64,000 nucleotides of DNA from Rhynchobatus australiae (Eukaryota). Where the stretch lies: assembly GCA_034780895.1 (NCBI GenBank), contig JAUZTB010000076.1, positions 118,325,337 through 118,389,336 on the forward strand, written 5' to 3'. Of this stretch, positions 395-62,700 are shown piece after piece. The translations under genes and the position numbers were made by a program. Numbering within the stretch: the first letter of the stretch is position 1; the number at the start of each line of letters is the position of its first letter. Under the pieces are notes generated by a model. That model ran no database searches. It was not told the origin of the DNA and saw only the letters and a list, made by a program, of their open reading frames with translations.

Positions 395-660
395 GTCATG
401 GCATCTGTGGGGGGGAAAGGAACCGTTGGCATTTTGGGTCAAAATCGTGCATCAGGACTGAGTGGAGAAGGAAGATGGCCAGTATAAAGAGGAGAGGGAG
501 AGTGGGGAGACAGGGGCTATCTTCCCTCTCTACTCAGTCCTGATGCAGGGTTTCAACGCGTAACATCAACAATTTCTTTCCTCCCCACAGATGCTGCTCA
601 ACCCACTTGAGTTCCTCCAGCAGGTTGTTGCTCCAGATTCCAGCATCTGCTGTCTCACAT
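395..660. mobile_element. Penelope-derived fold-back element
   Basis: Inverted arms tgcatcaggactgagt / actcagtcctgatgca; tail gatgctgc...gagttcctccagca...ccagattccagcatctgc shared with other copies. Confidence 0.6.
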
Positions 661-1019
661 GTTCCCTGTGATGATACAATTAAAATGAAACAATCCAACC
701 TGAAGAAATGTCCTTAATGTGATTTCCCCAATTGCTTTAGTCTATGTTATTAGATTTTAATCCCTTTAATGTGATTTTATTACTAAAAAAAATGTGCCGG
801 GTGAAATGAATGGAGCCACGCTTAATATCACCTACTGGGCACTCATATCATTGCAGTCAACCTGCCAGCCAAGCTTTTGTTCCATCCCTCCTTCCACATT
901 CTGACTGGGTTGAGTTTTTTTATTCCAAAATAAACTTCATTATAAAAAAAAACAAACTATATACAACAATAAAACAGTGCAAACCTTTACATTCGTGTAC
1001 GGATCAATCATTGGTGTTA

Positions 1020-2700
1020 CCCTTGAGTTGGATTTGGCAATGGGCGGTAGGATGGCTTATGAAAATCATGGGATGGGTGGGAACCTCTTTTGTTAGAGCA
1101 GGTACAGCCGCATCTTGCTCCAGCTGCCTGTTTAAGAGCTGCTCGGCAGTTTCCTTCCAGTGAAGGCTCATTTCTACACCTTTGCCGATTGAGTAGTGTG
1201 CCCCTAGTGGACTGGCCCTCATAATGTCGGGAATGGCGTCTCGGATCAAGAAGTGCAGGGAGCGAGCGGCCGGGATCGGCACCTGGGAGCAACCTGTGAA
1301 ATTCCTGAAGCAGGATTATGAAGCGCTCCGACAGCAGTGCTTGGAGACGGGAAGCCTGTTCTGTGACGAGCTTTTCCCTGCTTGTCCTTCAGCCTTGGGC
1401 TACAATGAACTCGGACCCGACTCGTACAAAACCAGAGACGTGGAGTGGAGACGCCCGAAGGTGTGGACCTTCCTTAAAATAAATACACGGTTGCAATTTA
1501 ATGCCTTAACTTGTTTTAGTTATCTTTTCTGCTGTTTTGCAATGTAACTCTATAGGACGAGTAACTTGTTTTATCTTATTATGCGTAATCGGCGCACCCA
1601 GGCAGTGAGTTCCTAGGCGATGTGCAAATCGTAGGTGTGAGACCTCACCATCGAGCTAAACAGAGATTGCCGTACCTGCAAACGCTTTGATTTGTATTTA
1701 TTTAAAAACGAGATTCGATCCCTTATCAATACCTGAGTAAAAGGTTTTGACGTGTACTATGGGATTTCATATTAAAGTATATTCTGTGAGCTTCACGCGA
1801 ACGAGGAGTTTCACTGCACCCTGGTGTTCATGACAAACTAATCTGAACATCGTGATAAACAACTGAATGTACAGTTGGCAACCTTGCAGGACTGAGTTCA
1901 TGGAAGCTCAACACTGAACGCTAACCAATCTCGTTATCCAACGAGAGCGGAGCCTCTCCCTGCGCTCAGTGCTTTAATGGGGGGGGCGATAACTACTTCG
2001 GGGAAGGGTGAGCTGGGGAGGGGAGCTTGATGCAAGGTACAACCGCATTTTGTCGTGCAGTCAAACGCCAGTTATTTTATAACGCGCACTTCATCGGTAA
2101 ACCCGGAATAGTTAGACTTCCACTTCTTGTGTCTAGTTTTCTGTGCCTGTACACACATCCCACTCCAAGGTCGCTTTGATGTCATTAGATAAATTAGAAG
2201 CTACAGTCATACTAAGGTCTAGTTTAAAAATTCCTGATTCATTGTCAGGAAAGAAGTATCTTCAAAATTTTCAGAGCTGCCATCGGGAGTGTTTTTATTT
2301 CAAAATATAACTTTAATTATGGTCTGAACTTCGCAAGATGTACAGATAGTTTTATCCACCCTGTGCATTAATTGGGTTACAATGGACTTTGCTTGTCCGT
2401 GTGATTGAAAGTGAAATTTGTTATAAGATTTCTTTATCCTATTAATCGAATTGGTTTCACGTTAGAGATTTTAAAAGCGTGATGAGAGATCACTTTATTG
2501 CATCCGTTCTGTTTTTTCCTTGATGTCTAAAGCACGAAGAATCCTAGTGTGACACTCCCAATTTTGCCCCCCCTTGTCACTGCGATAACTTCTTTGCCCC
2601 GCCGGTTATAGCCGGCACACTTCTCGAATGCATTGAGCTCGGACTGTGGCCCAATAGTGCGCAACGTGGTCCTGCCGCACGGAAATGGGCGCTTCGGCCC
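1020..2700 (+). promoter_or_regulatory. CpG-enriched promoter / exon 1 / 5' intron 1 region
   Basis: Visibly higher CpG density than the CpG-depleted rest of the window; GC box GGGCGG at 1042-1047; TSS not determinable. Confidence 0.5.
1224..1460 (+). CDS. capn2: calpain exon 1 (anchor helix, start of PC1)
   Basis: [20 protein letters not shown]...VEWRRPK; A at -3 of ATG; donor AAG|GTGTGG at 1461. Confidence 0.95.
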
Positions 2701-5700: not shown

Positions 5701-8700
5701 AGAATATAAAAGCTTGGAATGTTATGTTGTAACATTACAAAACACTGGTTATATTGCTGTTCTGGTTGCAACATTATAGGAAAGATGAATTAGCCAGAGT
5801 GCAGAGAGGATTTGCCTGGGTTGGAGGACTTTAGTTATGAGGAGAGATTGGCTTGTTTCCCCTGTTGTGAAGGAGGCTGTGGGATGGCTTGACGAGAGCC
5901 ATGGATGGTTAAAATCTTTTTCCCACAGTAGACATATCAAAACAAAAGGGCATAGGTTTAAAGTGAAGAAGTTTTAGATGGGATTTGAGGACAGAGCTTT
6001 CTACGCACTGGTCAATATCTGGAACATCAGAGGAGGTGATGGAATCAGATACAATCACTTATGTAGAAGAGACATTTAGATAGCAAGGGATGCAAGGATA
6101 TGAATCTGATGTGGGCAAACGGGATTGGTGTAAATGGGCAAAAGGTCAGCATTAATGTGGTGGGCTGAAGGGCCTGTTTCTGTGCTGTATAACTGATAAT
6201 ATAATAACCTACTATTTTGTGCTTTCAATTTGCTTTGCTCCAAAAAATTTGCTTTTCTCCACTTATCTACATCTTTTGTTATTTTTAGGATCTGTGTGCA
6301 AACCCTGAATTCATTATTGGAGGAGCATCACGCACGGATATCTGCCAGGGGGCACTAGGTAAGATACTTCTGCAAATGGTTGTTTGGAATGCACATTTGC
6401 ATATTACTGTATCAAATGTAAAGCTTGAAACTAGTCTGTTTGGTTCACCTTGTGTGTCATTGCTGCACACCCTACTTCATCTAACCTTAATGACATAAGT
6501 GTCTATTCCTTATTTTTATCATGCTTAGCATTTAATTATATTTAGGCTACTTAGTTGCCATGTGGTAGCCTGTCATAGTACATGGTGCTGATCAAAGCCA
6601 TTCATAACCATTCTGTGATTGTGACAAAAGCAATCTATCCCTCCTTGTCCAGCCTGCAGCTGTTGGAATGATTGAATGCAGCATCCTCCCCGTTACCTCT
6701 GTGCCATGAAGATGGGTGGAACTGGTCTTGCCTGTTCCATTCTTGTTTATTTATTCATAGCCAGTGAATCACCAACAATGACTCACTTCTCCCTGTACCA
6801 TTGAGCAAGCAGCGTTAATGGAGGCAAAGGACAGGTTAAATATCGGGTTGTGACCCTGCATCATGTCTCAACCCAAAATTCAGCCTTCCCTTTGCCTCCA
6901 CTGATGCTGCTTGATCTGAGTTCTTCCAGCAGTTTTTTTGTTCCAGATACCAGCACCTGTAGTCTCTTGTCTCCACTCTGCTTGTACTGTTGCTTCTGTT
7001 GCCCCCAAGCATAATTCCTTGCCCCTCTCCTATTTATCATCCTCGTGTTTTACTCGGTGACAAGAATTGAAAACTGTCCATTCTCTAATATTGGGATGAC
7101 TGGAGTCTTTGCCTTTTGGTTCCTTTTTACCTGTTGCCTTTAGACTTGGTAATTCCAGTAGACTCTTGAGTAGCCTCCATTGTCTTATTCTCCAGAAATC
7201 ATGGAATTATCCAAAGCTCTGCTAACCATCTTCCAACCTGCATCATTCTGTTCAAACATTACTTCTGCTCTTATCTGCTCCAGGTAAGCTTGAGTAGGTG
7301 TGCAATTCCACAATGGCAAATTCCACATTCTCACTACTCCCAAGTAAAGCTGTGTCCCTAGAGTTCCCCATAAAGTCTTGGTGTCATAGTTCNNNNNNNN
7401 NNGTTCCCCTGAAAGAGTTTAGGTGGGAATATGTGATTTCATATTTGACTGGGTTTGAGATAGTATTATATCCTTGAGCTTGCTGTTATTTCAAATGAAT
7501 ACAGAGAGTATTAAATACTGATTGTGGAGAAAAGAATAAGATATTTTTCTTTGGGTTTCTGCTTCAAATTTAGCCTTTTTTAAAACCAGACTGAAGATGA
7601 CAACATGGCAGTCAGCTTTCTGAAGTAGAGCAATTTCATTTTAATTAAAAATGTTGTAGATCCCACATAATGCTACTATTTCTGGGTAGTAAAGTAAATA
7701 TGAAAACTCAAGCTTTTACCATCTAATGGTTTTGCATGCACTTGACTAAAATTTATTATCTGAAATGAAATTAAATCATTAAAATACTGGCTTTATCTGA
7801 AATGAAATTATTTAATTTCATTTAAAGCCAGTATTTTAATGATTTAATTTCATTAAAATACTGGCTTTATCTGAAATGAAATTAAATCATTAAAATACTG
7901 GCTTTCTCCCTAATAAAATATGAAATTGCAACACTAGTAAATAGGATGCAAGGTTGCCACAAACATGACTTTTTTGTGTTAACTATCCCCAACAAACAAG
8001 ACAGTCCTTTCTCCTGTTTTCTTTTGTAGAGTAGGCTTATTTTCGGTTGGTTTTCATCATCCATGCTATAAGTTTTGATTTGGGCAAAAAATGGATATTG
8101 TGCAGGAATGATGGACAAATATAAGTTAGTCACAACTGTACTTTTATACTAATTATATGTGATTTAAATCAGACCCAGTGGTTTGTCATCTTGATGCACT
8201 TGAAATGAGGGGTAAAATGGGTATGGAGGAACTGCATTTGTAATATGTGGACAATTGCTATAGGGGTTGTTCTCCTCTTTCTAAGTTTAGCAACTAATTT
8301 GCAAATAAAATGTCAAATTTGAATCATTGGTACAGCTGTGAGGCATCTTATTCATATAACTACAAATTGAAGAGTGAATTCTAAACATTTGCACAGATAG
8401 AAATGTCAGCTCTTGTGAAACTTGGAAAATGTTGCTTGGTTCTCACCAAAATGGATTGCCTAGAACATGCTGATCGCTAAATTGTGGTTTGCATTTGCCA
8501 CTGCACATAAAGAAACAGAAAACAAAGATATTTCGTTTGCCACTCGTTCTTTGTAAAGTTGGCAATTGTGCTTGTTTTCCTCCCCAAAAGCCAATGATTT
8601 TTGTGTGTTTCAAGAGTTAACTTGAATTATACAGTTGGGTGAACGGTTTTCTGAAGACCTGCAGTGATACATCCACTGTCTATGCCTGCCCAATGCCATT

Positions 8701-11700: not shown

Positions 11701-14700
11701 CTACCAGCTACTAACACATTGGTGATTTAAAGCAGCCAATTAACATCAACTCTCATGTTTTTTGGGCTGTGGCAGGAGACTGGAGAAAATCCAACTCCCA
11801 AACTCCATACAGTACCTGAGGTTGGGACTGAACTCTGGTATTGGTTTATTATTGCCACTTGTACCGAGGTATAGTGGAAAAACTTGTCTTGCATACCGAT
11901 TGTACAGGTCAATTCATTACACAGTGCAGTTACATTGAGTTAGTGCAGAGTGCATTGAGGTAGTACNNNNNNNNNNNNNNNNNNNNNNNNNNNNNNNNNN
12001 NNNNNNNNNNNNNNNNNNNNNNNNNNNNNNNNNNNNNNNNNNNNNNNNNNNNNNNNNNNNNNNNNNCACCCACAAAATTCCAGAGGAACCCAGCAGGTCG
12101 GGCAGCATCTATGGAGGGAAATAACCAGTCAATGTTTCCAGTTGAGATCCTGATGAAGTTTCAGGTTGAGCCCTGATGAAGGGTCTTGACTGGAAATGTT
12201 GACTGTTTATTTCCCTCCGTAGGTGCTGCCTGACCTGCTGAGTTCCTCCATTTTGTGTTGAAAAGAAATGGGAACCTTTTTTGAGCAACCTGTATATCCC
12301 ATACCTCTTAGTATTTTCCAAACCATATTCTTTTGTAACTTTGGTTCAAAAGAAATTCACTCTTGAAGGCTTCTACATTATGTCCCAATTCAATAAAGCA
12401 TATTTAATATATCATGTTTGGAAACTGTTTAGACAAAGGGAGTGGTTCAATGACATGTCCTACAATGTGGACAATGTATGATACTATTTAATTAAAACTA
12501 ATAAAGTTAGCCAACGTTTAACATGTTTAGCATAACTTGCCAGCATTTTAATTATCCCTTGAAATAAACTCGTGCTTATTTTGCAGTTTTTGTGTGGCCT
12601 AATCAACTAATGGAGCGACATTTTAATAATTGGTATATTTGTACATGGTAATCCCTTTTTGTTTCTCTATCATGCAGACTTACATTTTTCAAGTGACATC
12701 ACATTCCTGGTCTTCCTACCAAAATGTATTGCCTTGTATTTAGTTGTGCTGAGCTTCATTTTCCAATTATTTGTCCATTCTACAAGCTTATGAATGTCCT
12801 CCTGTAAATTGCTGAAGTCCTGTTCCGTGCTTTCTATGTTTTCCCCCACCCTTCCTCTAGCCTACTAAAATTTGCTCTCATCTACGTTTTATTTTGTTTC
12901 CATAGTTGGTCATGAATGTAACTTGTGAACAGCAGTGGTTCCAGCATGTCCTCATGGAACACCCAACCCAGTGCAAATGGTTACTGTGTGCTCCCACTCT
13001 TTGCCAGCCAAAAGGCCAATCTGCTTTTGGCTCCCTGACTCTGCATTCACTAACCTTTTAACTGCCATTAGGATCAGTAGAAAGTTTGGAACTTGCAAGG
13101 AACAGAATCTGATTGACATTTATGTGGAGTCTTTGCAAATGGCTTTCAAATACTTATTTAGTTCACTTTGTAAATATGCTTTGTGGAAACTTTGTCTTTG
13201 TTTATTTGTGGTAAGAATTCCATCTTCGAATAACTTCCTGTGTTTGAGAGTTGGTGAGTGGAAAGAGTCAGGGTGAATTCTTAAGCCTATGTTCCTCATT
13301 TTTCTAGTGCTAAATGGAGAATGCTCTTGACTCTTGTTTTGGTAAGCATTGTTAGCAATTCCTCCTATGCACTGGTAATTACTGCATTTATTGTTTTAGG
13401 ATAAGTGTACATGTATTTGTCCTCCTAACTTTTATTTGTATATGGCACATGGGGATCTCTGTCATTGCCTATGCCTAATTACACTTGAAAAGGTGGTGGA
13501 GGTATGTAGTGGCTGGATGATTTTCAGAGGATAGTTAAGAGATGCTCTCATTGCTGTGAGCTTTGGAGTTGAATGAAAGACAGTCCAGATAGATGGAATA
13601 AATACTTGCTAAAATGCGTTGGATGGTACCTTCCAAACCCATGACCTCTGCCAGCTAGAAGGACAAAGGCAGCAAAAACATGGGAACACCACCACCTGAC
13701 AGTTGTCCTCAAACCACTTCCCATCCTGACATGGAAATATATCGCCCTTCACCATCACTGAGTCAAAATCCTGGAATTCCCTCCATTACAGCATTGCGGG
13801 TTTACCTACGCCTCAAGGACTGCAGTGGATCAAGAGAGCATCTCCCTCCCACCTTTCGAGGGCAATTGGGGATGGGCAATAAAATGCTGGCTCAGCCTGT
13901 GAAGCTGAGTGAACTTGAGAAATTCCTTTCCCTCAAGGGTGTTGAACCAATACCAATCATTGTTACCGCTGCTAACATTTATTTAGTAGAACTTAAATTT
14001 CAACCCNNNNNNNNNNNNNNNNNNNNNNNNNNNNNNNNNNNNNNNNNNNNNNNNNNNNNNNNNNNNNNNNNNNNNNNNNNNNNNNNNNNNNNNNNNNNNN
14101 NNNNNNCCCCCACCACCAAAGACTAGATTACTAGCACAACCTCAATAACATTTTTTTAAAGTTAACAACAGAATTCTGAATTCATTTCCCTATAAGTTGA
14201 AATGGTGTTTGAATGTTATTTTTAAGCATGATTTGAGGCTCTTTAACATTCTGCAAAATTAATCATAAGATGCCTAGAGATGAAATAACTGTCTAAAGTT
14301 AGTAAAGTCTTGCTTTACTTTTTTTAAAAGCTGATTTGTATTCTAATTGTGGTGGAATTCCATGTAGCACTCTGGCTCCAATAGAATGCATGAGAAACCA
14401 GGCTGGTGAAGTTTCATTCCTGCCCATTCTTAGTGTTTCAAAAGACAGCTGCTTAAATATGCACCATTTATGATTGTACATTTTGGGTGTTGTTGACTGT
14501 GGAACCTTCACATGCCTGAGGGAGATGTTGTTCATACAAAGGCTGAAATGGGGGTTGGGTGAGTCTTAAGGTGGGAACAGTCTGAAACTTGAGCTCCAGA
14601 TTTTGAACTATATTTATATATTTTTTTGAAAAATCTTTGAGGAAAGCAGCCTTGCTTTTGAATGTAGAGCTAAAATTAATTTTTCTTTGACATTTTATCT

Positions 14701-17700: not shown

Positions 17701-20700
17701 TACTTATTGACAGAACAGCCAGCTTTCTCCAACCTCATTTCTTTGAAACCGTGCTATATAAATGGCCATTTGTCAAACTGCATTCATTGTCTCATTGAAG
17801 TCTATGTCCTCAAATGCAACCTTGCACATGTGCCTTGGTAGCTTTGCCCATGTTGGTCACCTTTTGGCTACTCTACCATGGGATCATTCTGGGCTGCTGC
17901 TGCTCATCTTTGGCCCATCTCACCATTTGTAGTTCACTGCTTCTTTAGGATTTAGCCCAAGCTCCAAGGAGAAGAGTTCATCAACTTTCTTTGGCTCGTG
18001 GGAGCAAGCTTGACCACTTGCCTGCTATGCAGGTGTTCAGAGTCTGTGCCCTTGTCCTTGCAGCCAATTGCCAGGAGTTGGGCCACTAACCCTGGAGGAT
18101 TGGTGTGCCTCCCATCCCCCCCCCCAATACAATGAACCTGGCTTGTGGGTACTGTTCTTCACCAGTCAAAACCCCTTCAACATCTTGGGAGTGTAGTTGT
18201 CCACACATCAATTGCAGCATCCATTCATTCGGTAGCAATATTCCCTGTAGCTAGAAGATTGCTGCTTATATCATGGTATGTACCTTTAACAGCTGGCTGC
18301 AAATATTTCACCTGCTGAGCTGCATGAGAAATTGGTAACAGATCAACAGGAAATGCCTTGTTGAAACCAAAAATACCAGATTCAGTGTGGCTTTGTGGAG
18401 CAATACTTAGTGCTGTATTGTGAACCTCTCAATTGAAGGTCTTGCTCCTTTGACTTTGACAGAGTGTCAACTTAAGTTTTCAACTCCAGCAATATCTGTA
18501 CAATAAGCTTCCTCTACACTTTCTATACAATTTAAAATATTATTTAAGTGCATTTTCTTTAATGGTATTTCTGTAGGTAGATGTCTCTTACATCTGTCTT
18601 CTGGGATTCGCCTGAAATTATCCAGATTGGATAGTTGAGGCTCAGCACAGTAAATCGTGGCAAACACCACAAAGTAACTACAGGCACTACAAATAAGACA
18701 AGATGTTATATGAAACTACTGAATATGTGTATAATATTTTAATTTGTGTACACCTCTGTACCTTACTCAGCTTTAGCTCTTAACCATAACTATGACCTGC
18801 ACTCGTGTGCTTCTTTTCAACTCCTTTCTCTGAACTCGACTCCCTCCAATGATTACTCAAAGGGAAACAAATACAATTTTCAGATACTAGAATCTGAAAC
18901 AAAAACAGAAATGCTGGAAGAACTCAGCCAGTCGAGCAGTATCTATATGTTTTGGGCTAGTGATCCTTCCTCAGAATGGGGGAAGAATGGCGGTCTTTCA
19001 GTTTGCAGAGTGGAGTGAGGTGTCAGGAAGAAACTCTAAGGAGCCATCTCCCATTGTTGGTGATGACTCCTGTCTGCAGTTTGCTTTTTAAGGTGCCTTC
19101 TAACTTTAAATATTACTCTCAGTTTAACTTAAATAATCTTGAACATAACTCACACCAACAGTTTTCTGATGGAATGCATTTCCATTTTGTATTTCAATAG
19201 ATATACTTAATACATTAAAATATTTCAGGAAATTCAATCCATTTATTGTGTCAGCAGAATCAGGTTTATTATCACTGACGTATGTCATGAAATTTGTTGT
19301 TTTGTGGCAGACATAGACTTAAATTACTATAAGTTACAAAAATAGTGCAAAAGAGGAACAATGAGGTAGTGTTCATGGGTTCAAATCAATACGTTCCATT
19401 TATTAAAGTGTTTAGTCACAAATGATAATGGGACAGGCTACAAGCCCAAAACAAAAATAAGAAGTTTCACTATGAAAGGTATAATAAACCAGTTCTAACG
19501 GCAACTGCACATATACTAGTTAGAATACAGAGTATATCTATCTTTTTTTTCAAACATAAAGATACTCTCTGAAGCTTCCTGTAAATTGCTGAAGGTTGCC
19601 AAGAACCGACCTTATTTTGTAATCCAAAGATCTGTGACCATTTGCGTGACACAGCCTCTCCTTTTAGTTGTGTCATCTCCATGCTGTTTTCCTGCTGTCA
19701 GGCCTTTGTCTGTTCACCATTAGCAAAGATGCTTTAATGGGGAAAAGTCTGAGTTTTTTTTTGCACTCCTGAGAAATTGGTGAATAGGTCTTAGTTTAGT
19801 GGTGATCTAATGCTTTCCACTTTCAAAGGCGTTTGGGGTCAGGTCCAGTCTTGCTGGCACCATCTTTGTCACTACTGTGTTGACTTGTAAATGTTGGTAG
19901 AACACCTTGGTAATTTGGAGCAACCTGTTTGCCTAAACAGATTCTTCAGCATTTTGTCTGTTCTCGTAATCTGTTTGAAAAGTTCATTACAGAGCTAGTT
20001 AGTTCATCATGGCTGAAATATAAATTCTGATAATTTGAATGTTTTGGCCACAGTTCCTTCCAAGATAAATTTATTTCTCTATATTGAATTGCATATGTCA
20101 CATATGCCCATTCTGTTAGCCTCTGTACATTTTCCACCAACCCCAACCCCTCGGTCCTTTCTGGACTAGGTTTCCAGTGCTCCCAAAATGTTAAGTGAAT
20201 TTTGTCACAGCCCCCTTAACTCCAATTAGATAATTCTTGTTGACATTATCATTTTCTTTTTTAAAGTCCTGTTTGTATATAATGAGTACTACGGCATTTA
20301 TAATTCTATGGACAATCAAGTTTTATTCATAGTCATAGAAGCACAGGGATGCAGCGTGGAAACGGGCCTTTCAGCCCACTAAGTCTAGGCTGAGTATCAA
20401 CCACCCATTTTTACACTATTCTACACTAACCCATTTTATTGTTCCTGTGTTCTCATCAACTACTTCCCAGATTCTATCTCTCACCTACACTCTAGGGGCA
20501 ACATACAGAAGCCAATTAACCTACCAATCCACACATTTTTGGGATGTGGGAGGCAATCCATGCCATCACAGGACGAACATGCAAACTCCACATAGACAGC
20601 ACTGGAGGTCAGGATCGAACCTGGGTCACTGGAGCAGCAGCTTCACTAGTCACTGCCATACTACTAGACCAATTCCCCTCAAAGAGATGAGACAAGTTAA

Positions 20701-23700
20701 ATTTGAACCTGGGAGCTAAAGCACCTCAAGATACAGATGCAGGTTACCCTTAAATATTGCATGTGGTCATCCCATTTTTCCCAGGTTATGAACACCCGAC
20801 TTATGGGCAGCTTGTACATGTGGGATGGATGGGGATGGATTTGCCGGCTTCTGCGGGGCTGCAAGGTGGGAATGGGGCATTTCCATGTGTCTTCTCTCCC
20901 CACCAGCACCCGAGCTGTATCATTTGGCGGCTGGATTGAGCCAAGCTGAGCAGAGCTGGGAGCACTGAGCACTGCTCACTGAATCAGTGAGACTGGCTAT
21001 CAGCTGCTCTGCTCCCTCTCCCATCACAACTGTTTCTGCACATTTCCAACTTATTGATAGTTCCCAGGAACAGAACCTTGCCATAACCTGGGGACTTCCT
21101 GCATATATAAATATTACATTAAGAAAGTGGCCAGAGAGGTCAAATCAACTCATGGTTAGATCATGAGTTGAGTGGAAGGTCCAAATATATAGACATTTTT
21201 ATTAGTCACATGTAGTCAAAACAGTGAAATGTATCTTTTGCGTAGAGTGTTTTGGGGTCAGCCTGCAAGTGTCGCCACTCTTCCGGCACTGACATAGCAT
21301 GCTCACGACTTCCTAACCTGTACGTTTTTTAGAATGTGGGAGGAAACCGGAGCACCTGGAGGAAACCCACACAGTCACAGGGAGAACGTACAAACTCCTT
21401 AGACAGCGGCTGGAACTGAACCCAGGTCGCTGGCACTGCAATAGTGTTACACTAACTGCTACACTACTGTGCTTGGCAAATTATTGTATTTCCTGATATT
21501 TGCATAGTCTGTTACTTTTTTTGGCTTGTATGAAGTCTATTTAGTTATCGAACAGGAGTAGGCCATTCAGCCTTGGATCCTGTTCTTTCATTCAATGATA
21601 TTTGAACGGTAATCTACATTCATATATCCATCTTCTTCCCAGGGCCCTTGATATTTTTAGGTAAACAAAGGTGTATTTTAAAATCTAACCATTGACCTGG
21701 TTAGTGTAACTTGCTATTTGTAGAAGAGTCTTAAACCAGACCCACTCTTCTCCAACCTGTGAAGAGAGTTTCTTGCTGTCTACTCTGTTAGTCACACTTA
21801 ATCATGGTAAAGTAGGAATGGCATTTGTTTCTATCCCACCAGAATAATCACCATAAATAAATGTGGGTGTAGTTTCTAATCAATTTTCCTTTATGCAGAA
21901 TGCAGAAAGAATTTTCTGAACATGTCTGAACAGGCAACCTGCTACTTGAGGTGTGCCTACTGGAATTGAGCAAATGAGCTGGAGCTGGTTGGGAACTTGG
22001 TGGGTTATTTTGCAGATGTGATTCAGAGTGCCAAATGGTGCAACGTTTCCAGCTACTTGGGTAACAGTCATCACTGAGTTGGTGTATGCCTGGAATGTTG
22101 GGCAGAGGAATGTTTTGGGATTCTGGAACATTGGGATCATATTTGCAGCCAGGATTTCCTGTGCATTTGAATGCAGTGAGCAAGAGAACCATCTCTCTTG
22201 CAGATGCAATAGAGAAAGATTTAAACTGAAAATGAAAATTAAAAAAAAAACTACAGATACTAGAAATATTATAAGCATTCTTCCCTAAAGAGCTAAAGAG
22301 CTCTGGCAGTTGATGGGACACTGGGGAGAATAAACTGGAATTAGTGTAAATGGGTGGCTGTTGGTGTGCTGAGGGGTCTGTTTCCATGCTGACTGATTAT
22401 GGATGAAAAGGGCAAAGTCTGGATCAGTGCCCATCGGGTCAGGCAGATTCTGTGGAAAGAGAAAGTTAATGTTTCAGTTCTTGAGAAGAAACCACTGAAA
22501 ATGGTTTTTATCACAAAAAATCAGATGTACTGTTAAAACATTGTGCCAATTTTGGATCTAATTTTGCACATTCTCTTAGAAGTCATGTACTTCTATTCTT
22601 GACCAGTCTTCCATACAGGACTTTATAAAAAAGGCTTGCTAAAATTTATATAGATTACATTAGATACCCTCATCAAACTTCCTTGTTACCTTTTCAAAGA
22701 CTTCAATCATCTTACTCATTATTCTACTTTCAAAGAGACTACACCCATTAATATTACTTTTTCAATTATGTTTGTGTGGTTCAGTATTTTGCATATACTC
22801 GCCTATAACCACAACATTGGTATCAATTCCCTCTCTGAAGGGAGTCACAGAATTTTTATTGAGACTCTTACCCACATTCTTCATCATCACCCCAACACTT
22901 TCTGTTTTATATTTTGGACTTTTTAGCTTTTTGTTAATTGTGGTTAGAGCCGCATCCTACTGAATGAAAATATAGATTTATGTAATTTGATCCAGGCAGG
23001 CCTAATGTATATAACAGTAGGTTGATCTATGGCAAACAGGTTTGACCTGTTGCTGTCAAAAGAGGATGTACCTGGCCTTTTTGTTTGCAGGCATATTACT
23101 TCATTGGATCCTTTTTAATATCAAGAATAGGCACTGATCCAGATTTTGCCCTTTGTAATATGTTGCCACATGGCATGGAAATGGGCCCCTCAGCACACTG
23201 TACCAACAACCATCCATCTACACTAATTCCCGTTTATTCTCCCCAGTGTCCCATCAACTGTCAACAATTTAGAGAAGGGTGTTCATAATATTTTAAGTAT
23301 TTTATATAAATATTGAAAGTGATGTATTTCAATCTGAAACCAGGGTCTTAACTTTAAAAGCAATCCGTCAGGCATGCGATGGCTAGGGTAAATAGGGAAC
23401 TTTGTTTAAACGTTAGCCCCTGCTTGTTTACTCAATGCAGTTTACAGCAGATTAAGTATATTGCCTTGCCTGTTGCAGTTTGTATATATAAAATGGCAAC
23501 AGGTAAAGTGTTCCAGCTTAGAAAATTAAAAAAAGTTAAAGCCAGTATCGGGTTAAAGGGAAAGGTCAACAATATTGCCAAAAGGAGCAGTAAGTCAGAA
23601 GATCAGGAAATTAAAACATTTGGCAATATTGTAGCAACCTTTTCCTTTAATCCTTTTTAAAGTTCTGGGATCCATGTCTGCAGATCAATTCACTTTCTAT

Positions 23701-32700: not shown

Positions 32701-35700
32701 GTGGAACAGGTTTGAAGGGCCAAGTGGCCTCTACTCTATTTTCTCATGAAGGACTAATTATTATGTATCCATTTTTCAGGTTAAATGGGTCCTATGAAGC
32801 ATTGTCCGGGGGATCTACAACTGAGGGGTTTGAGGATTTTACAGGAGGAATTTCCGAGTGGTATGAATTAGATAAAGCACCAATCAATCTCTTTAAGATC
32901 ATACAAAAGGCATTAAGATCTGGGTCACTACTTGGCTGTTCTATTAATGTGAGTATCATCTTAATCCAGAGCTCATCATCCTTGGTTTATATTTTGGCTC
33001 AAAGTTTTTGCTAACTCTAGCACTATCTGGTAGATTGTTACTAGTGGAGAGAATTAGATCATTGACATCTACCAAAATTGGTCCTCATTTCTATTGTAGT
33101 GTAAACACCAGTAATTTGAAAGTCTCCATCTGTCCTTTTTGCAGATATCTCATACATGTGAAGCTACTCAAAAGTCATGCCAAGGGGTAGTCATCCTTGG
33201 TCACAAGACACAGTATAGGAGTAGCTGTACATTGAAATATGCTCTTAAAATTTGGTTTTACTAACCTCAACTGAACCAAATTTTGGCAGCGATATGTAGC
33301 CAGTACTACACAACAAACAATCTGCTGTAGGAACTCAGCAGGTTGAGCAGTATTTGTGGTGGTGGGGGGAGGATCCGTTGATGTTTTGGGTTGAGATTCC
33401 AGCATTTGCAGTCTCATGTCTCTCTGCAGCCAGAACCATGCTACATATTTAGCACCAGAGGTCAGCTGTGAAAAGTCAGTTTCTGTTTAAGAACCTACCC
33501 TAGAGATGATCAGAAAATGCTGTAGAGGTGAATTAGGAACTTTGTCGATTTATCTGTGAATGGTCAGCTTCCAGCGTGTGATACAATAACTGTGCAAGTG
33601 ATAACATTAGCTAGCAGAGATCTTCCCACCAGAACCCCTTGAAAATCTACCTTGTAGAAAGGATGGACTCACCAACTTGCTTATAAATATAGTGCTGCTT
33701 ACTTAAGCTATATTTTAATACAAACTATCCAAACACTTGACCTTTTGAATTTGGTTAGAATTTTTAAACTTCCTGATTGAGCACAGTACATAGTCACATG
33801 CTGAGGGGTGGGGTGAGGGAGAGGAGTACATCTGCCAAACTCTCTCTCCAATTTATTTCCATTGGACAGATACAGGGTCAGGTTCTTGTTATGTGTGTGC
33901 GGTCCTCCCTGAACAATTTATCTTTATTTGCTTTACAACCAGTAAGGAAATCTATATTAGATTCAATGGGAATTATTCAGATAGCAGGATAGAGTCCATT
34001 GCTTAGAAGAGCTGATTGTGACCTGTTTTCTCTATAAAACTCCTGAGGTTTCCATTGAAAGAAGACGTGCAATCTGCCCCTGAGAAGATGAAGAAATAAA
34101 TTTACTCAGTCAATGGGCGATGGAGAATAAAAAAAAGTTAATTGACTTGTGCATTATTGCTTAGTTAAAAGGAGGCACATAATTATGTTCTGTGCATCAA
34201 TATTTAGGACTTTGATTAAGGGGCCTGACTATATTTGCGTGTTTTGTGTTTGGCATCTGTGTAAACAATGTGGGTTGTGCTGTTTTATTACACTATTTCG
34301 TATACAATTATTTTGTGGGATTCCTTGCTGCTTTCACTTTTTCCTTTTGCAATCTAATGTACAAACCTTAAAGCTCGGGTGTAAATCAGATGACCATCTA
34401 TCAGTTTACCTCACAATCTAGGCATGTAATATGTATCTTGATGATTAACTTTACGAATACAAAACCTGCATTGAATAAAATTACATGAAACAATAAAGTT
34501 GCACAGCAAATTGTGCATTGTATGACTAATATATACACGTAACTGACCTGCATGATAAATGAATGTTGACTATTTAGTGCTGACTTATTTGACTATTTCC
34601 TACTGTTTTTTTATGCATTAGATCACAAGTTCAGCAGAAACAGAGGCAATTACTTCGCAGCAGCTGGTCAAAGGTCATGCTTACTCTGTAACTGGAGCAG
34701 AAATAGTAAGTCTGAAACCAAGTGTTGTAATAACCTGTACTCAATTTTAAATTTGTGTTTCCTGAAAGGGTGAGGCACTATTTTTCTGCAGTTTTCAATG
34801 GAATCACCCTTTTGTCTTTTAACAGTTGTGAGTCATCCTGAATGAAGCAATTGGTTATACAGGTAAAGCAAGCCTGTGACATGTTTTGTTGCCCAGAACG
34901 GTCAGGCACAGCTCTCCTGGCAAACTCTCTCATCTGTTCAGCCTTTGGCCCTCCTTCCTTCCTCACTTTTGCTCAAATACTCCTCTGCATCTGACATTTG
35001 GATCCCTCTCCCCAGAAAAACCTTTACATTCTCCCTGCCTGGTTATTCATTCCTTTGGGTCTAGCTGTCCCAGACTTGAACATACTTGTTGCTAGATCTG
35101 GCCGGATCACATTCTAGGATTATCCTGGAATGAAACATAATAGTAGCTGTCTTATCTCTGCTATCAAGAGTAACCATAAACACTTTGCCTCTGGCACTGA
35201 TATCCTGAATCTGCCTATCTTTCAACTGGTACCACCTTAGACCAAGTAAGAAGATTGTGAGTTTAAATTTCACTTTAGAGGTTTGAGTACAAAATCCAGA
35301 CTAATCTTTCTTTGCAATACTGAGAGCACATTACACTATCAGAGTGCTGTCTTTAAGATCAGATGCTAGGTCTAGGCTGAGGGTAGGGTACTTTCTGAAA
35401 AGAGTATAAATTGCACCGTTTTGAAGATGACTAGTGGAGTTATCGCTGGTGTCTTGGCCAATACGCATCACTTAAACAGTGTTGCTAGTTGGTGCCACAC
35501 TGCTGTTTGAGGAAGTTTGGTGGTAATACAAATTGCCTTCAGAGTTTAGACAATAGTGAGTACATTCAAAATGTACTTCATTAGCAGTAAAATGCTCTGG
35601 GATATAGCTCCCTGAAAGTGGAAACACGAGTAGATAAGGTGGTAGAGCAAGGCATCCGGTACGCTTGCCTTTGTCANNNNNNNNNNNNNNNNNNNNNNNN

Positions 35701-38700
35701 NNNNNNNNNNNNNNNNNNNNNNNNNNNNNNNNNNNNNNNNNNNNNNNNNNNNNNNNNNNNNNNNNNNNNNNNNNNNGAAGATAGATCTTGGTCCAGTGTT
35801 CATTGGCGGTGAGGCTGTGGAGAGACTCTCCAGTTTTAAATTCCTGGGGGTTTCCATCACCGAGGACTTATCCTGGGCATTACACACCTCAGTTGTCATT
35901 AGGAAGGCACAGCAACACCTCTATTTTTTTGAGGAAATTGAGGAGAGCCAGACCGTCTCAGAACATTCTGGTGAATTTCTATCGGTGTGCGGTGGAGAGC
36001 ATCCTGACATACGGCATTACTGCCTGGTATGCCAGCTGCACCAGGAAGGAGCAGAAGGCTCTGCAGAGGATCATCAAGCCGGCCCAAAACATCATTGGGA
36101 CTCAGTTATCAGCGATGGAGGATATCTATCAGGCCCGATGTCAGAGCAGGGCTTCAAACATCATCCGAGAACCTGCTCACCACCTCTTTAAACTACTCCC
36201 CTCCAGCAGGCGATACATGCACACACCACAGGACTGAAACAGTTTTTTTCCCCCAAAGCTGTTAAATTGTTGAGTGCGCACAGAGAGAGAGAGAGTCTTC
36301 CTCCCTTCACTGGCTGGACTCACCATGGTGTTATTTAATGATTTATGCTGCTGATTATCATGGTTCACTTACACACTGCCTTTTTTATACCTTATATTTG
36401 TATAAGTATGTTTGTTTTATTTTATAGTCATAATTTCTCTTATCAATTTACTGTTCTGGTTTTTTATTAGGCAAGGGAGTGTCGTCATAATTTCATTGTA
36501 TTGTTGTGCTGCAATGACAAATAAAGAAATCTTGAATCTATATCCTGAGGTTGTGGAAGGTGCAACATAAATGCAAATTGATCTCCATTAACAAATCCAA
36601 AGGGTTCCTAGATTTCTTAACTACCAAGATTGAGACAATCAGTACAGCTTCCTTCCACCTCTGTTCATTTACTCAATAAATCAAACTTTCTCTTTTAGTT
36701 TCTGCATTTCTCAATATTAAATCTAAATTTCATATATTTAGGAGCAGGAGTATTCCTCTTAGTCCTTTTAGGTCTGTTCCAATAACTAATAAGATCATGG
36801 CTAATTTGATTGTAACCTCAACTCTCCATTCCCATCTACCCTCAGTAAAGAATCTACTGACCTCTGCCTTAAAATATTCAGTCTGCTTTCAACGCCCTTT
36901 GAGGAAGAGAGTTCTGACTCATGAACATCTGAGAGAAAAATCTTGTTTTCTGTTTTAAATGGCTAAGCCCTTATTTTTAAACAGTGGCACCTGGTTCTAG
37001 ATTTTATTTCCCAAGAGAGAACATCCTCTCTGCACCTGCCCATCTGTCCCTTCCTCATTAGAAGCCTATTCCTGGTACTGATCTAGTAAACAATCTCTGC
37101 ACTACCTCCAATACATCAACTTTCTTCCTTAAGTAAGGAGCCCATTACTGTACATAGTATTCTAGATGTGGTCTCTCGCTAATTCCTTTATAATCAAAGC
37201 ATAAACTCTTTATTCAATTCCCCTGGTTTGCAATATGTTAGCTTCCTTACTTGCTGTACCAGCATTGTGGACTTTTAGTGAATCATGCACGAGAACATTA
37301 CAGCACAGTACAGGCCCTTCAGCCCGTGATGTTGTGCCGATGTTTTATCCTGCTCTAAGATCTATCTAACCGCTCTCTATATTTCTCCTCCCAANNNNNN
37401 NNNNNNNNNNNNNNNNNNNNNNNNNNNNNNNNNNNNNNNNNNNNNNNNNNNNNNNNNNNNNNNNNNNNNNNNNNNNNNNNNNNNNNNNNNNNNNNNNNNN
37501 NNNNNNNNNNNNNNNNNNNNNNNNNNNNNNNNNNNNNNNNNNNNNNNNNNNTACTGACTTCAAGGAGTACTGGAAAAAGGAAAGTAAAGTTATACTGAAA
37601 GAGAAGTAAGTACATTTTAATGTCTTCATAACTTTATTTCTTCCATTATTAAATAGTAAAGTTGACTCGCACTTTCCATGTTACCTTATTGTTGCTTTTC
37701 ACACTGCATTAGAAGGACCAAGCAATGTCCATTGTCATTTTACTTAAGAGGGAATGAAGGTTAGTCATTCAAATCCTTCATGTATTTGCTTGCATCTAAC
37801 TGAGCCAACAAACTCGTGAGATATTCAGACTTGGGCCTGATCCATCAAGTGCTTCAATGTGGGTTTCAGGAATACAATTGTTATGTAACATTTAAAAATG
37901 AGAAAAATGGTTGAATCTCAACACTGCACATTTGACAAATTCAAATACTATAAATGATGGAAATCTTAAAAATACATAATATTGGAAATACTCTGCATGT
38001 CAGGCAGCAACTGTGAAGAGAGAAGCAATAACTGTTTAATGTTCTTATGAAAGTTCTCTGACCTGCAGTTGCCATATCTGTGCCTCTCCTCACCCCTTCG
38101 CCTCACCTACTAACTGTTTCCAGTGTTTCTATTACTTACACATTGGGTCCTAATCAGATTGCCTTCACATCACTTCTTGTTCTTGAATTTTTATGACCCC
38201 CATTTGTCTCATAAATTCTATTTTGGGTTGAGTGGCCTTATCCACATGTGGGGTATTCCTAATTAAGTGTTTTATTTCTTTCATTCCTCCTCCTTGATTT
38301 ACCTCTGCCCCTTCCATGGAAAATTGTTTATTTTATTAGTGTCGGTGTCATTGATTTGTCAGAGAATCACTTTGCAGTTCCCTTCAAGTCCTTTGGCATG
38401 TGCTGATCTAGATTCTGCTACCTGCATTAATGGACCAAGATGAATTGGAAAAAAGATGAAAAACCTCTGACCTATCACTCTGGTTCCCACCCCCCTGCCA
38501 AACTAGTTTAAACCCTCCCCAACAGTTCAGGCAAATCTGCCCGCAAGAATATTGGTCCCCCTCCAGGTGTAACCTGTCCCTTTTATACAGGTCATACCTT
38601 CCCCAGAAGAGATACGAATGATCAACAAATCTGAAACCCTGCACCTCCTCAGCCACGCATTCATCTGCCAAATCATCCTATTCTTACCTTCACTGGCGTG

Positions 38701-41700: not shown

Positions 41701-44700
41701 ACAAGGCAGTCTTTTCTATTGACATTTGTAAAATACTTTATCAATGGGTGTTACACTGTTTGATACTTTTTCAGGCCATTGAAAGTCCCCATTGAATGTA
41801 GGACCTTCTGACTTGGCACAATTGTAATTACACAGGGAAGACTGCAAATGTTCATGTTAATCAACCCTCATTGAAATTGGTCATTTCTGACATGGAAAAT
41901 TGATTAATGGACAGTTCTCAGGATCGGAACCTTTACATAATCCGGGGACTGCCTGTATTTTTAAACTGCATGCATGTTGAAGTACAACACATAGATTACC
42001 TTCAATAAACTCCAAAGTGAACAGCGGCAATCTTATATTTTCTGTGCTCTGCCCCTAAGCACATCCTTTCTCCTGTTTCTCCCAGTTGCAAACTGAGAAA
42101 CTGCCTTTGAATGACGTTAACTGGCTTAAAAAATATATAATAATGTTTTGTTATAAAATTCCAGTTATACCTTACAACTAAACTAAAATCTGATTCTTGG
42201 CTTTAAAAGGAACTGAGTGCATTGCTGGGAGTACTCCAAGATTGGTTATGTTGTTTCCAAGTGTTTAAGGTGTTATGCATATCACTAGGTCAATTTGAGA
42301 TTTTAGAACATAACAAAGCTCCCTGTAATGAAAGATGATGTTTATGTTCATGTGCGACTCCTGTAAATAGTGACAACATAACTGCCTTTTTACAATGTTT
42401 TTCATTTCATCCCAGTGCACCAGAGTGGAGATGTATCCCTGATGAAGAAAAAGAGCGCCTTTGTGACCGATCAGAGGATGGAGAGTTCTGGTAAAAAAAT
42501 AAATTCCTTCCTCTGGCTGCCTTGATTTTTATGACTAGTTTTGTGGCAAGCAGAGCAAACGGGTAGCTGGAAATCTAAAGTAAAACTGGAAATATTATAG
42601 GACTCAGTATGTCAGCTTGTGGAGATAGGTGTAAGATTAAATGATTAGATCCATGAACCTCCTGTTAGAATTGGAAGATGTTATGGTTGAGCAGGCTATA
42701 ATGAGGAATATAACAAGACAGTGCAACAATGGAAAAGATACTGACCATATACACAGAAAGGGAAGCTGCTACTGCACTGGTTTGTCTCCACATAATTAGT
42801 ATAAAAACAAGAGGTTGAGAGGTTATGTTGCAGCTTTACAACACGCTGGTTAGGCTGCACTTGCAGTACCATGTGCAGTTCTGGTTACCACACTATTGGA
42901 AGGATGTGGTTTGCACTGGAGAGAGTGCAGAGCAAATTCACCAGGATGTTGCCCGGATTGGAGGACTTTAGTTATGAGGAGAGATTGGATAGGCTGGATT
43001 TGTTTTCCTTGGAGCCAAAGAGGTTGAAGGGTGACCTGATAGAGGTATATAAAATTATGAGAGGTGTAGATAGCCAGAATCTTTTTCCTATGGTTGGGGT
43101 ATCAAAAACAAAAGGACATTAGTTTAAAGTGAGAAGGAGTTGTAAAGGGGGTTTGGGGAGAAAGTCTTTTACACAGAGAGTTTATATTTGGAGTTTGCTG
43201 CTGCTGATGGAATCGGATACAATCACCATTTTGTGGAGAGATTAAGACAGGCACTTAAAGTAGGCAAGATATAGATCTAATGTGTGTAAATTGGTTATAG
43301 AGTCGTACAGCACGGAAAAAGGTGTTTTGGACCATGTGTGTCCATGCTGCCCAAAATGTACATCCAAACTAATCCCATTCCCCAACACTTGGCCCAGGTA
43401 GGCAAAAAAAGTCAGCGTGTATGTGGTGGGCCAGAAGGCCCATTGCCGTACAATTCTATGACTCGATAACTGGGGTGGACAAATGTGTTTCAAGTTGCAG
43501 AGGAGAGAGTGGAGAGAACAGGGAATGTCTGTGATAGGGTGCAGACCAGAGTTACTTCAAAAGCTGCCAGTTGGAGACAAAGGGAAAAAATGAAACAACT
43601 TGAAAGCTACATCCACCAAGAGAAATAAAGGGCCTTACTTGATATAGCTAAATGGAATCTGAAATTCCTTCTTGTTACAACACAGGAGGAGGCTTGGTTA
43701 GCCCATCTCAGGTTCCCATGGGACCAGTTCTACTGGTCCCACTTCTTCTTATTTCTTTGCCTATTTTCTCTGAGATGTCCATTCACTCCTCTTTTGCCAC
43801 TTCCTACNNNNNNNNNNNNNNNNNNNNNNNNNNNNNNNNNNNNNNNNNNNNNNNNNNNNNNNNNNNNNNNNNNNNNNNNNNNNNNNNNNNNNNNNNNNNN
43901 NNNNNNNTGTCCATTCACTCCTCTTTTGCCACTTCCTCCATTGTGTACTTAGCAGCTGCCAGTTAACCGACCTGCACGTCTTTGGGATGTGGACGGTGGA
44001 CCCAGGGGAAGCCCATGCAGTCACAGGGAGGGTGTGCAGGCTCCACTCAGTCAGCACCTGATGTCAGCATCAAACCCATGCCCCTGGAGCTGCAAGGCAG
44101 CTGCACTAACAACTGCACTAGTGTGTTGCCTTGGCATGAAATGTCCCAATGCCAGGTCGGAGAGTGGGGTGGGGAATTAAAGTGACTGGAGACTGGAAGC
44201 TTGGGGTTGCCTTTGCAGCCTGCTCTGCAGAGTGGTCACCCAAACTGTGTTTGGTTTCTCCATTGTAGAGGAGGCTGCACCATGAGTACCAAACTGGAGG
44301 TGACAGAAATTATGGAGGGTGATCCACTGAATGTGAAAGCTGGTGGGGTGAAGGTGAGGTCGAGGTGAACCCAGTCCTTGTTCTGGCTGAGAGGGGGTGA
44401 GGGCAGAAGTGTGGCAAATAGAAACTGGGTTGATAGTCCTGCCAACAATAGTAGAGGGAACCACAGTTAAGGATAAAAGGAAGGCATCCTGAAAACACTG
44501 GTGAGAAAAACCTTGTCACTGGAGCAAAAACAACGGAGATAGACAAACTGAGAGATTGGAGTCCTGACGGATTGCAGGGTGGGAATTGGTCAGCTTGAAG
44601 AGCATCATATCGGTGGTTTATATGATTGTTGAAATTAAGAAATAAGGAACAGAATGGGGAACATGGGATTAAATCAATTGCCTATGTGGATAATAAGTAC

Positions 44701-59700: not shown

Positions 59701-62700
59701 TATTTCCATGATTATCAGCTTCAGACCTTGATAAATGCGATGCTTATATATGTAATAAGTAGACACATACATACAGAATGAATTGTCAATAAAACTAGAT
59801 TAATATAAATGTGTTTTCCTCCCCAGGTTTCACTCTGAACAATACATTGATTCAGAACATTGTTGCACGTTATGCAAACTCCAACTTTGTCATTGACTTT
59901 GATAACTTTGTTGGCTGTTTGATCCGATTGGAAACCATGTTCAGTAAGTTATTTTTTTTAAACTGTCCTATATATTCCACCCATATATACATTGAGAGCC
60001 AAATTCATTTAACGATGGGCTACTGACAAAGTGGAGCAGAGCGAAATGACTATCCACTCCTGGATATTAATCCATACCCTCAGCATATGGATGATTCAGA
60101 TTCTCATGGCACATAATCTTTACCTGCTTGTCCCAACAATCTAGAAGAAAAATCAGAGCAGCTATGTTACACCTATATGAAATAGCAGCCTGGGGTGGGC
60201 TAACAAGCAAGAAGTGATCTTTTGAACTTGCTTATGACCATAGTTACTTTCTAACCCTCTGAGTAAGAGCTAATAACACATTGTACTGAATTACAAAAGT
60301 AGCCAAAGAACTTCCTTCCAACATGCTCCAAATTAGGCTCATATTTGCTTTGGTTTTGCTCTGGTTGTGCAACCTCAGGATGTACTCTTAAGCCAAAATC
60401 TCCTGGGTAATACTCCAAGAGCAGGGGTTTGGCCCTCCCAGATCCTTGCAATTTTATGATCAGTTCAAAACAATTATGAAAACCTAAGAAAATAAAGTCC
60501 ATCGAACAAAATGTCGATGGAAAGTGGAATAGGCTGCTGGGTTACACTGATTGCTTTATTCACAATGCAAATTGTGGGGCTCCACATCCAATAATGCAGG
60601 GAGTGTCCACCTAATGTTATTCAGTACAACAGGTGCTAACCTTTTGAGATTATTAGCAGTATTTCTTCATTATTCGGGTGGCACAAGTAAACCACTGCAA
60701 GTAATCCCCTAAACTAAAATTATCATGTTTAGTTTGTGTACAGATTTGGATGGAAGCTTTCATTCCAAATGAATTTCTCTAATAGAGATTTTATCCCTCT
60801 TTGAGAGTGTATTCAATTACTGTACATGGCTTAGAGAATATAATTCCACAAACATATTAAAATATTTGTATACACAATTTTCTTTCCTCCAGCACATTGT
60901 CACACTCCCGTCCCTCCACCTTGCTCCATCTATCATTCACCTGCCAATCTTCCAACTCCATCCCTCCTCACCTCCCCTACCTGCCTGTTGTCTTGCCAAC
61001 ACCCCACCCCCTCTCTATTTTCAGTCCTGATGCAGGGTTTCAACCCAATATCTTTCCTTCCACAGATTGTTTGTTGCTGAAAATATTGGATGTTTAGAGA
61101 AAAAATATAAGACTCCCATTCAATTGAGCAAAAGAGACAGTGTTTTTCATTAAGCATGGTACTATGATGCTGGAGGAACTCAGCAGGCCAGGCAGCATCC
61201 GTGGAGAAAAGCAGGCGGTCAACGTTTCAGGTCAGGACCCTTCTTGAGAAAGGGTCCTGCCCAAAATGTTGACTGCCTATTTTTCTTCACAGATGCTGCC
61301 TGGCTTGCTGAGTTCCTCCAGCATCATGGTGTTTTTCATCTAGATTCCAGCATCTGCGGTCTTTTATTTCTCACAGAGCCATGCTTATACTCTTATGTTC
61401 CTGCTTTTTCAGGAATATTTAAACAACTAGAGCTGAATGATGAGGGAGAGACAGAGATGGATATATTTATGGTAAGTATCTGCCATTACATATTATAACA
61501 GTACCAATTCTCATTCATTATCCTATACTTTTAAAAACATACCATGTTTTTTGACTTGCAGTCAGAAGGAATGTTTTGAATATTCCATACACAATTTCTG
61601 GAGCTTTGGGTGGATGTGAGAACAGAATTTGGCTTCCCACAACCAGCAACCCAGCTCCATTGGAAGTTTTGGAGCAGCATATTCTAAATATGATAAATAT
61701 TGCATTTATCCATTTCTAGCACTATTCAGATGTTCCCATATTTTCAGGGGGATATTGCAACAGAATCAATGTTAATAAAACAAGAACTACTACTTTTGTG
61801 ATTATTAGCTGACTTCTAGTTTCTTGATCTCTCCACTTCCCTATGAAACCTGCAAACTTGGGATAAAAATTTCCTTATGATCATTTTACTATCATCTATC
61901 AAACTTTTGTTAGGCTGCAAAAGAGCTGCAATCATGTATATGGCTGAATTGTCCTGAATTGTCCCAAATTCCCCTTTAACCTGGATAAACAGTTCTTTGA
62001 ATTGGCATCTAAAATTGCAGGGGCTTCCTGCNNNNNNNNNNNNNNNNNNNNNNNNNNNNNNNNNNNNNNNNNNNNNNNNNNNNNNNNNNNNNNNNNNNNN
62101 NNNNNNNNNNNNNNNNNNNNNNNNNNNNNNNNNNNNNNNNNNNNNNNNNNNNNNNNNNNNNNNNNNNNNNNNNNNNNNNNNNNNNNNNNNNNNNNNNNNN
62201 NNNNNNNNNNNNNNNNNNNNNNNNNNNNNNNNNNNNNNNNNNNNNNNNNNNNNNNNNNNNNNNNNNNNNNNNNNNNNNNNNNNNNNNNNNNNNNNNNNNN
62301 NNNNNNNNNNNNNNNNNNNNNNNNNNNNCAGGAATATGCCTACTTGAACTTTTTTCCTCTCTTATTTTACTACTTCCCTTATGGTGTTGATCCTGATAAA
62401 TTGCAGTCATCTCTTTAAATTTGCACTTTGTTTTTCATTTTCAGAAATCTACTCTCAATCTGAAATGAAAACTGAATGCTGTACCACTTCAGAAAGAGAA
62501 ACACCTGATGAGGGATCTTTGGCCTGAAACATCAGTTCTGTATCTCTTTCTGACCTGTTGTTTCCAACATCTGCACTTACTGATTTTTATTTATTTTCTA
62601 AAACCACCATACACAAAATTGGTGAAAATATTAATTTTAATCTGACCAAAAATCCACCCATTTAGAGAGTCAAAAAGTGTTTGATTATTACTTCAAAATG

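Follow-up and report, generated by a model that had tools for sequence, protein, structure and literature searches.

Endonuclease-bearing (EN+) Penelope-like elements (PLEs) insert as compound units. In the excerpts of the literature drawn on here, such a unit comprises a pseudo-LTR (pLTR), an adjacent inverted and 5'-truncated copy, a tail of 30-40 bp at one end and a TSD (PMC8557442), and head-to-head junctions with palindromes and a TSD have been reported as well (PMC3846280). A CX2-5CxxC linker between the reverse transcriptase (RT) and the endonuclease is a Neptune/Nematis trait (PMC8557442). Hammerhead ribozymes of PLEs occur as opposite-strand pairs 100-700 bp apart, with widespread single motifs derived from truncated PLEs, and the minimal forms are reported to need a same-sense dimer; we did not find sharks or rays named in the portion of that paper available to us (PMC4209133). 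For PAc, a Poseidon element of Anolis carolinensis, cleavage and extension take place on both target strands, reverse transcription in vitro begins at two internal sites, by which the tail is defined, and ribozyme mutants insert normally (PMC11167929). In Penelope of Drosophila virilis, the end of an intron has been placed at the 5' end of helix I (PMC4209133), and a start site lies just upstream of that end (PMC2377424).

Here we analyze a family of short repeats in a 64,000-nt stretch of the Rhynchobatus australiae genome (the window; C76:118325337-118389336 of a 2.23-Gb assembly). An earlier note on this DNA had listed eight sites as related, several of them as head-to-head inverted duplications. 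All eight belong to one repeat family: self-BLAST of the window links them, and profile HMMs derived from copies elsewhere in the genome match 8/8, the main profile recovering seven and an older-subfamily profile the eighth (62505-62572, E 7e-9), while reversed-sequence controls gave no match in any of the three scans. The duplications were also rightly described, as self-BLAST returns inverted self-matches at four sites (401-594, 6803-6916, 12071-12257 at 77.5% and 61161-61330 at 84.2%). We conclude, with a probability of roughly 85%, that the repeats are 5'-truncated pLTR ends of an endonuclease-bearing Penelope-like retrotransposon, each fold-back likely being made anew when the autonomous element inserts, and not derived from a pre-existing fold-back. 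Like the published EN+ units, they show head-to-head inversion, a tail on one arm, TSD-like flanks and heavy 5' truncation, and their pLTR and tail overlap the start of the coding region (compared with the parts of PMC8557442 and PMC3846280 at hand). Unlike the units in those accounts, they are present, by extrapolation, as tens of thousands of units of 130-260 bp whose ends and junctions gather at the 5' edge of the ribozyme.

Positions within the element are numbered from the C of CUGAUGA (+1). In the copy at 12067, the left, inverted arm (12067..12151, minus strand) covers +8 to +92 (nhmmer E 5.5e-20), and the right arm (12169..12258, plus strand) covers -3 to +89 (E 1.7e-29) and has the short, tail-less type of end. 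The arms join head to head on a common 3-nt CCT, and an imperfect tandem duplication of 24 + 23 nt, read from the sequence, spans the junction (12134..12180, with halves 12134-12157 and 12158-12180). The outer left end and TSD of this copy are unreadable because a 100-N gap (11967-12066) cuts its left end; among the contigs of other runs that we searched, none spans the gap. Immediately to the left of the gap lies an unrelated, very high-copy short repeat (11836-11966); contigs and RNA reads of relatives contain it in abundance, and one RNA junction, at 11836-11871, is strongly one-stranded.

Two further fold-backs, each with the tail on the right arm, represent different subfamilies: that at 401..665 is of the CTGATGC type, with arms starting at -52 and -24, and that at 61161..61371 of the CTGAAGA type, with arms starting at +4 and +2. 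A decayed fold-back occupies 6803..6971, its tail again at the right arm. The remaining sites hold a decayed single arm with a tail, matched by profile (18868..18983, minus strand); an arm covering +12 to +94 (33303..33425, minus strand), followed on the plus strand, as judged by eye, by a tail-only piece; a 5'-truncated copy with pyrimidine-rich UTR, a CTGATGC core and an internal deletion (60920..61067, plus strand); and, within 62445..62590 (plus strand), the old-subfamily arm 62505-62572 with CTGATGA and GAAAC and, by eye, an inverted tail remnant at its left. The profiles also matched copies absent from the earlier list, namely one at 9538-9592, decayed minus-strand arms at 22406..22481 and 42563..42676 (E 5e-4), and an old fold-back at 37942..38128 (E 2.6e-13 and 1.9e-3). 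Around the six window copies at which TSDs were sought, no clear ones were found.

Other features of the window are worth recording. A motif scan identified exons of a calpain-like gene at 32637-57915 (plus strand) from the motifs GHAYS, RIRNPWG and NPQF and an EF-hand, and located none before 32637; the copies at 33303, 37942 and 42563 sit between these exons. An AT-rich nested palindrome at 7756-7925 has near-perfect arms (92% over 91 nt) and is unrelated to the repeat family. Near-identical direct duplicates occur at 2190-3628, 4670-4827, 5226-5505, 9651-10595 and 43776-43937; most adjoin 100-N gaps, and they are likely assembly artefacts.

The earlier note had also quoted a hammerhead-like motif for these elements. 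The motif is indeed present at 12173-12200, but CTGANGA and GAAA occur together at only two of the eight sites (12173 and 62505). The copies at 395 and 60920 read CTGATGC, which is a subfamily trait (C at core A9; window positions 533-560 and 61027-61053), and the centre of the 61164 copy lacks CTGANGA. At 12168..12205 (plus strand) we recognize a decayed minimal type I hammerhead with a broken closing pair of stem II. Its stem I is formed by 12168-12172 and 12201-12205, its core by CTGATGA (12173-12179), GAAA (12193-12196) and the NUH triplet (12198-12200), and a bulged A (12180) precedes stem II (12181-12192). The conserved closing pair of stem II is here a G opposite a G, and three of the five stem I pairs are kept, so that this copy does not show the G10.1-C11.1 pair together with paired stems; its hammerhead fold is predicted at -1.4 kcal/mol versus -10.2 for an intact copy. 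The whole fold-back, in turn, is predicted to form one long hairpin of -132 kcal/mol, which in this model would mask the motif. That every copy in the window is decayed, as had been stated, is correct (0 intact).

At the level of the family, the attribution to hammerheads is well founded: we found 81 exact intact copies of the 38-nt motif (control, 0), and the subfamily majorities keep its layout. This consists of a 5-bp stem I, CUGAUGA, one bulged base, a G-C-closed stem II, GAAA, a palindromic ACGU and GUC; the family consensus thus has CUGANGA, GAAA, NUH, both stems and the palindromic 15.2-16.2. Compared with the metazoan PLE minimal type I hammerheads in the available part of PMC4209133, the motif shares a stem I of 4-5 bp, a bulged base between 9 and 10.1, the G10.1-C11.1 pair, the palindromic 15.2-16.2 and the absence of helix III; it differs in a stem II of 4-5 bp and in a large subfamily whose core position 9 is C. 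The inner pair of stem I covaries across subfamilies (C-G 29, U-A 16, mixed 6+6; p=5e-5, with controls at p 0.03-0.6), which counts as one event because the change was inherited by a subfamily. When two intact copies are cofolded, they are predicted to pair, in a structure that does not display the active form.

Intact ribozymes are nevertheless rare among copies taken at random (0/70 sampled arms intact versus 9/70 with a full core). Within subfamilies, core letters are no better conserved than tail letters (505/560, 0.902, versus 666/733, 0.909). In the large subfamily in which C replaces core A9, stem I is also shortened, and this form accounts for 628 pattern matches versus 854; under the run-off reading considered below, the near-equal spread of a subfamily whose catalytic base has changed would mean that the ribozyme need not cleave in vivo. 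An Rfam scan yielded no hammerhead match in the window and none at six loci, three of them with an intact motif. The blank result for the window is therefore uninformative, since Rfam misses intact copies too. MicroRNA hairpins drew sub-threshold Rfam matches only and were rejected as chance.

The Penelope origin proposed for the family is supported by the longer copies, in which RT and GIY-YIG coding sequence lies in line with the repeat end. These copies extend into a Penelope-like ORF with RT pieces (L002, L054, L081), a Neptune-type cysteine linker and a GIY-YIG at the C terminus, and the mini-elements are on this ground the pLTR end of a Penelope-like element. At locus L274 the order is RT piece, thumb, GIY-YIG, UTR, hammerhead and tail, and RT followed by a C-terminal GIY-YIG in line with the repeat end is found at L274, L269 and L278. 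Copies that reach further 5' have ~300 nt of pyrimidine-rich sequence and, upstream of it, GIY-YIG coding sequence (L024, L056, L081, L028). The RT pieces were identified from DKG and YIDD-type motifs and gave no Pfam RT match. Among eight coding pieces from the genome itself, Pfam GIY-YIG matches two (E 0.02 and 0.0024, both below the cutoff) and the scan returned nothing for the other six; it matches all four of the related proteins scanned (P0001, P0002, P0005 and P0006; E 1e-4 to 2e-3). A coding piece of the element is 63-73% identical to stingray and devil ray proteins in 7/8 matches, in line with a ray as the likely host. Three predicted proteins of stingrays and devil rays that are named as host genes (P0003, P0004, P0008) contain the GIY-YIG piece of the element and probably represent insertions that were mis-annotated or exonised.

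The repeat end lies ahead of the coding region as well. At L289 (C87:66001308-66004459), UTR is followed by an N gap, by +35..+128 of the repeat, and then by coding-region sequence common with L300 (78.6% over 529 columns); because the same end here runs into the coding region that it precedes, we regard it as a pLTR. A 5' pLTR-to-coding junction of this kind was present at one of 30 loci in a second walk (L289), a first walk over 30 RT loci having revealed no 5' pLTR, and our search for an intact full-length element found none. An ATG at +51 of L289 opens a frame through the tail, and the ribozyme itself falls within the N gap. The likely start codon at +51 thus lies behind the cleavage site, whereas in the PAc account available to us the ORF starts at stem II (PMC11167929). 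The linker reads CX4CXXC in L024, L081 and P0001, which is again unlike PAc and is the Neptune/Nematis trait; we use the name Neptune provisionally, on the strength of one linker motif common to Nematis.

To gauge abundance, we sampled 140 evenly placed 10-kb stretches from 13 large scaffolds (1,158,061 non-N bases, 1.16 Mb) and counted 201 arms reaching the 3' part (reversed-sequence control, 0). This amounts to ~174 per Mb, which extrapolates to roughly 300,000 arms genome-wide. Their 3' ends are bimodal, at +85..+99 and +115..+134, so that two end sites lie ~35-40 nt apart. The two 3' ends and the tail would fit the layout of PAc as given in the available portion of PMC11167929. Seventy of the 201 arms pair up tail-out within 1.5 kb, giving 35 pairs, 25 of them with a gap of at most 40; the other 131 have no detected inverted partner, and some of these have a decayed one by eye. 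Copy sizes grade from ~130 bp up to kilobases with ORF pieces.

The 5' ends of the copies peak at the edge of the ribozyme. Sixty-eight single arms cover the edge with an N-free flank, and in 26 of them the flank is something other than the pyrimidine-rich UTR; 24 of these 26 short copies start at -8..+3. No such peak was found at the cleavage site (+29), where N-free solo arms number 4 at +21..+33 versus 32 at -8..+3. A secondary peak, at +35..+45, arises in part from how the older subfamily aligns. In 75,333 contigs of a relative, likely DNA, the 5' loose ends among those listed pile up at -4..-2 (373, 284 and 242 contigs listed, with mixed flanks), and 11 of 13 opposite-strand joints have one side at -5..+1 (among 15 of 110 joints listed). 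Inverted arms next to long coding copies start at -5..+1 in 4/5 cases in one set but in only 2/8 in another. We did not find this 5'-edge hot spot described in the literature that we searched, a search that excluded Repbase, Dfam and most subscription journals. Some 5' junctions repeat short pieces of the ribozyme start and flank (the L003:1501 region, L017 and window 12134-12180), which we take to resemble templated insertions of microhomology-mediated end joining.

The architecture of the fold-backs bears on how they were made. A strict pattern retrieved 277 short fold-backs (control, 0), and we parsed the junctions of the first 50, a set in which the pattern favours one subfamily group and in which palindromic stems blur the parsing. 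Both arms could be resolved in 47, of which 41 pair a long with a short arm, 6 are short/short and none long/long; the longer 3' end, or tail, is therefore on one arm only in 41/47. The 50 fold-backs contain 39 distinct junctions. The recurrent ones (one in 5 copies, one in 3 and five pairs) sit on microhomologies of 6-9 nt that the acceptor-like sequence preceding stem I shares with stem II in reverse; the commonest, in 5 copies, has a built-in 9-nt microhomology and is found in two subfamilies with different outer ends. After 11 fold-backs were dropped for N, flank matches of at least 9 nt were seen in 13/36, versus 5/1260 swapped pairs; the remaining 23/36 are without a 9-nt match, which decay may hide. 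Partner arms are 79.8% alike versus 76.8% across copies, and the own partner is closer than the best arm elsewhere in 1/29. Given the varied junctions, the one-arm tails, the TSD-like flanks and the finding that tandems are gap duplicates (see below), each fold-back is best read as a separate insertion.

By analogy with PAc, we envisage the following course of events. The protein of the element would nick both target strands, and two cDNAs would be primed inside its own RNA, at about +130 and about +95. Both would end early, often at the 5' edge of the ribozyme, and might then be joined head to head through short microhomologies supplied by the ribozyme's own stems. The inserted copies would afterwards decay neutrally, with the ribozyme as a passenger here. 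As for the early stop, the edge reads as a splice acceptor (a pyrimidine tract and CAG) and, we presume, also as an initiator-like motif. It is conceivable, at somewhat less than even odds, that the 5' edge of the hammerhead is where the template RNA has its 5' end, in which case two run-off, strong-stop-like cDNAs of 95-135 nt, primed on both target strands, would be joined head to head. If this is true, run-off together with twin priming would account for the inversion and the tail as well as for the 300,000 or so stumps. Alternatively, the new cDNA could fold on itself at the edge.

Among the competing explanations, the one that fares best keeps the same parent element and has a single cDNA fold on the ribozyme stems and copy itself; self-priming on the antisense strand has been proposed before, in the part of PMC3846280 available to us. 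We consider it unlikely as the general route. The clustering of junctions on the inverted repeats of the ribozyme, with their 6-9 nt of microhomology, is what such folding would leave, and both arms of the 12067 copy have two stem II changes in common. Partners also share more non-majority letters than random arms do (1.88 versus 1.12), but common letters are also expected from one subfamily RNA. Self-copying would be expected always to put the tail on the arm that extends further 5'; that arm is tail-less in 23 of the 34 fold-backs that could be resolved, so that one arm has an additional 5' extension and the other an additional tail, and 11/34 are compatible with self-copying too (ties, 7/41; p=0.058 for 23:11 against 1:1). 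At least these 23 need an RNA template for both arms, as self-copying of a single cDNA cannot give them. Folding and self-copying may act in a minority of cases, as a variant of the twin-primed insertion that we prefer and yielding the same object.

A different proposal builds on the non-autonomous, ribozyme-bearing palindromic family inferred in the earlier note and has the fold-backs, as a retrozyme- or SINE-like family, transcribed, cut by their hammerheads and re-inserted as a unit by the Penelope protein. Several observations made this attractive. The copy number is very high, the sharp 5' edge at the ribozyme makes short copies resemble a defined unit of 95-135 bp, a few junctions recur, and family-derived reads are abundant in the RNA of a relative. 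Furthermore, the repeats are like the non-LTR retrozymes in the consulted part of bioRxiv 10.64898/2026.07.22.740005 in being non-coding, PLE-derived, type I hammerhead-bearing and largely dispersed as monomers. However, those retrozymes consist of units repeated head to tail, at least two consecutive ones having a complete ribozyme, and we found no such array among the intact motifs and sampled arms here. The 81 intact motifs include three same-strand pairs, all of which span gaps; these apparent tandems (L047/L048, L251, L252) were rejected as assembly duplicates across 100-N gaps. In the sample there are seven same-strand neighbours, with no intact arm among those tested. The arms of a fold-back lie on opposite strands and cannot form a same-sense dimer, and the long hairpin predicted for the 12067 fold-back RNA would hide the motif. 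Nor do the copies behave as a unit. The 50 fold-backs comprise as many as 39 kinds of junction, with no fixed junction and fixed outer ends common to many of them, sizes are graded, and most arms lack a detected partner. The relative's RNA-seq, which is fragmented and in which small circles are poorly visible, has family reads on both strands and no pile of starts or ends. A one-strand A-to-G (ADAR) scar was detected in 0/51 fold-backs at p<0.05, a test of weak power at ~135 nt per copy. The near-equal spread of the C-for-A9 subfamily also argues against this proposal. As an account of the fold-backs, self-spreading by units is largely refuted and, in our judgement, very improbable; the single-arm mini form may still be copied again in trans. 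We give very little weight to an origin of the palindromes as errors of assembly or as later rearrangements involving two inverted copies close to each other: 100-N gaps flanked by duplicated sequence are numerous in the assembly, and one of them directly adjoins the 12067 copy, but the arms are only ~80% alike, the tail is on one arm, TSD-like flanks enclose the arm pair, and opposite-strand joints are also seen in reads and contigs of other species.

The small mirror-image repeats are thus likely to be ordinary by-products of Penelope insertion rather than a self-spreading ribozyme family. The object itself is ordinary, being made of the decayed ends of retrotransposons belonging to a known class, together with a known ribozyme, and in annotation these repeats should not be labelled as MITEs, microRNA hairpins or retrozymes. 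Their value lies in their numbers: so many short insertions amount to a naturally kept record of the points at which Penelope reverse transcription begins, stops and joins, and such a record bears on the origin of the inverted repeat and the tail, and on the purpose of the ribozyme.
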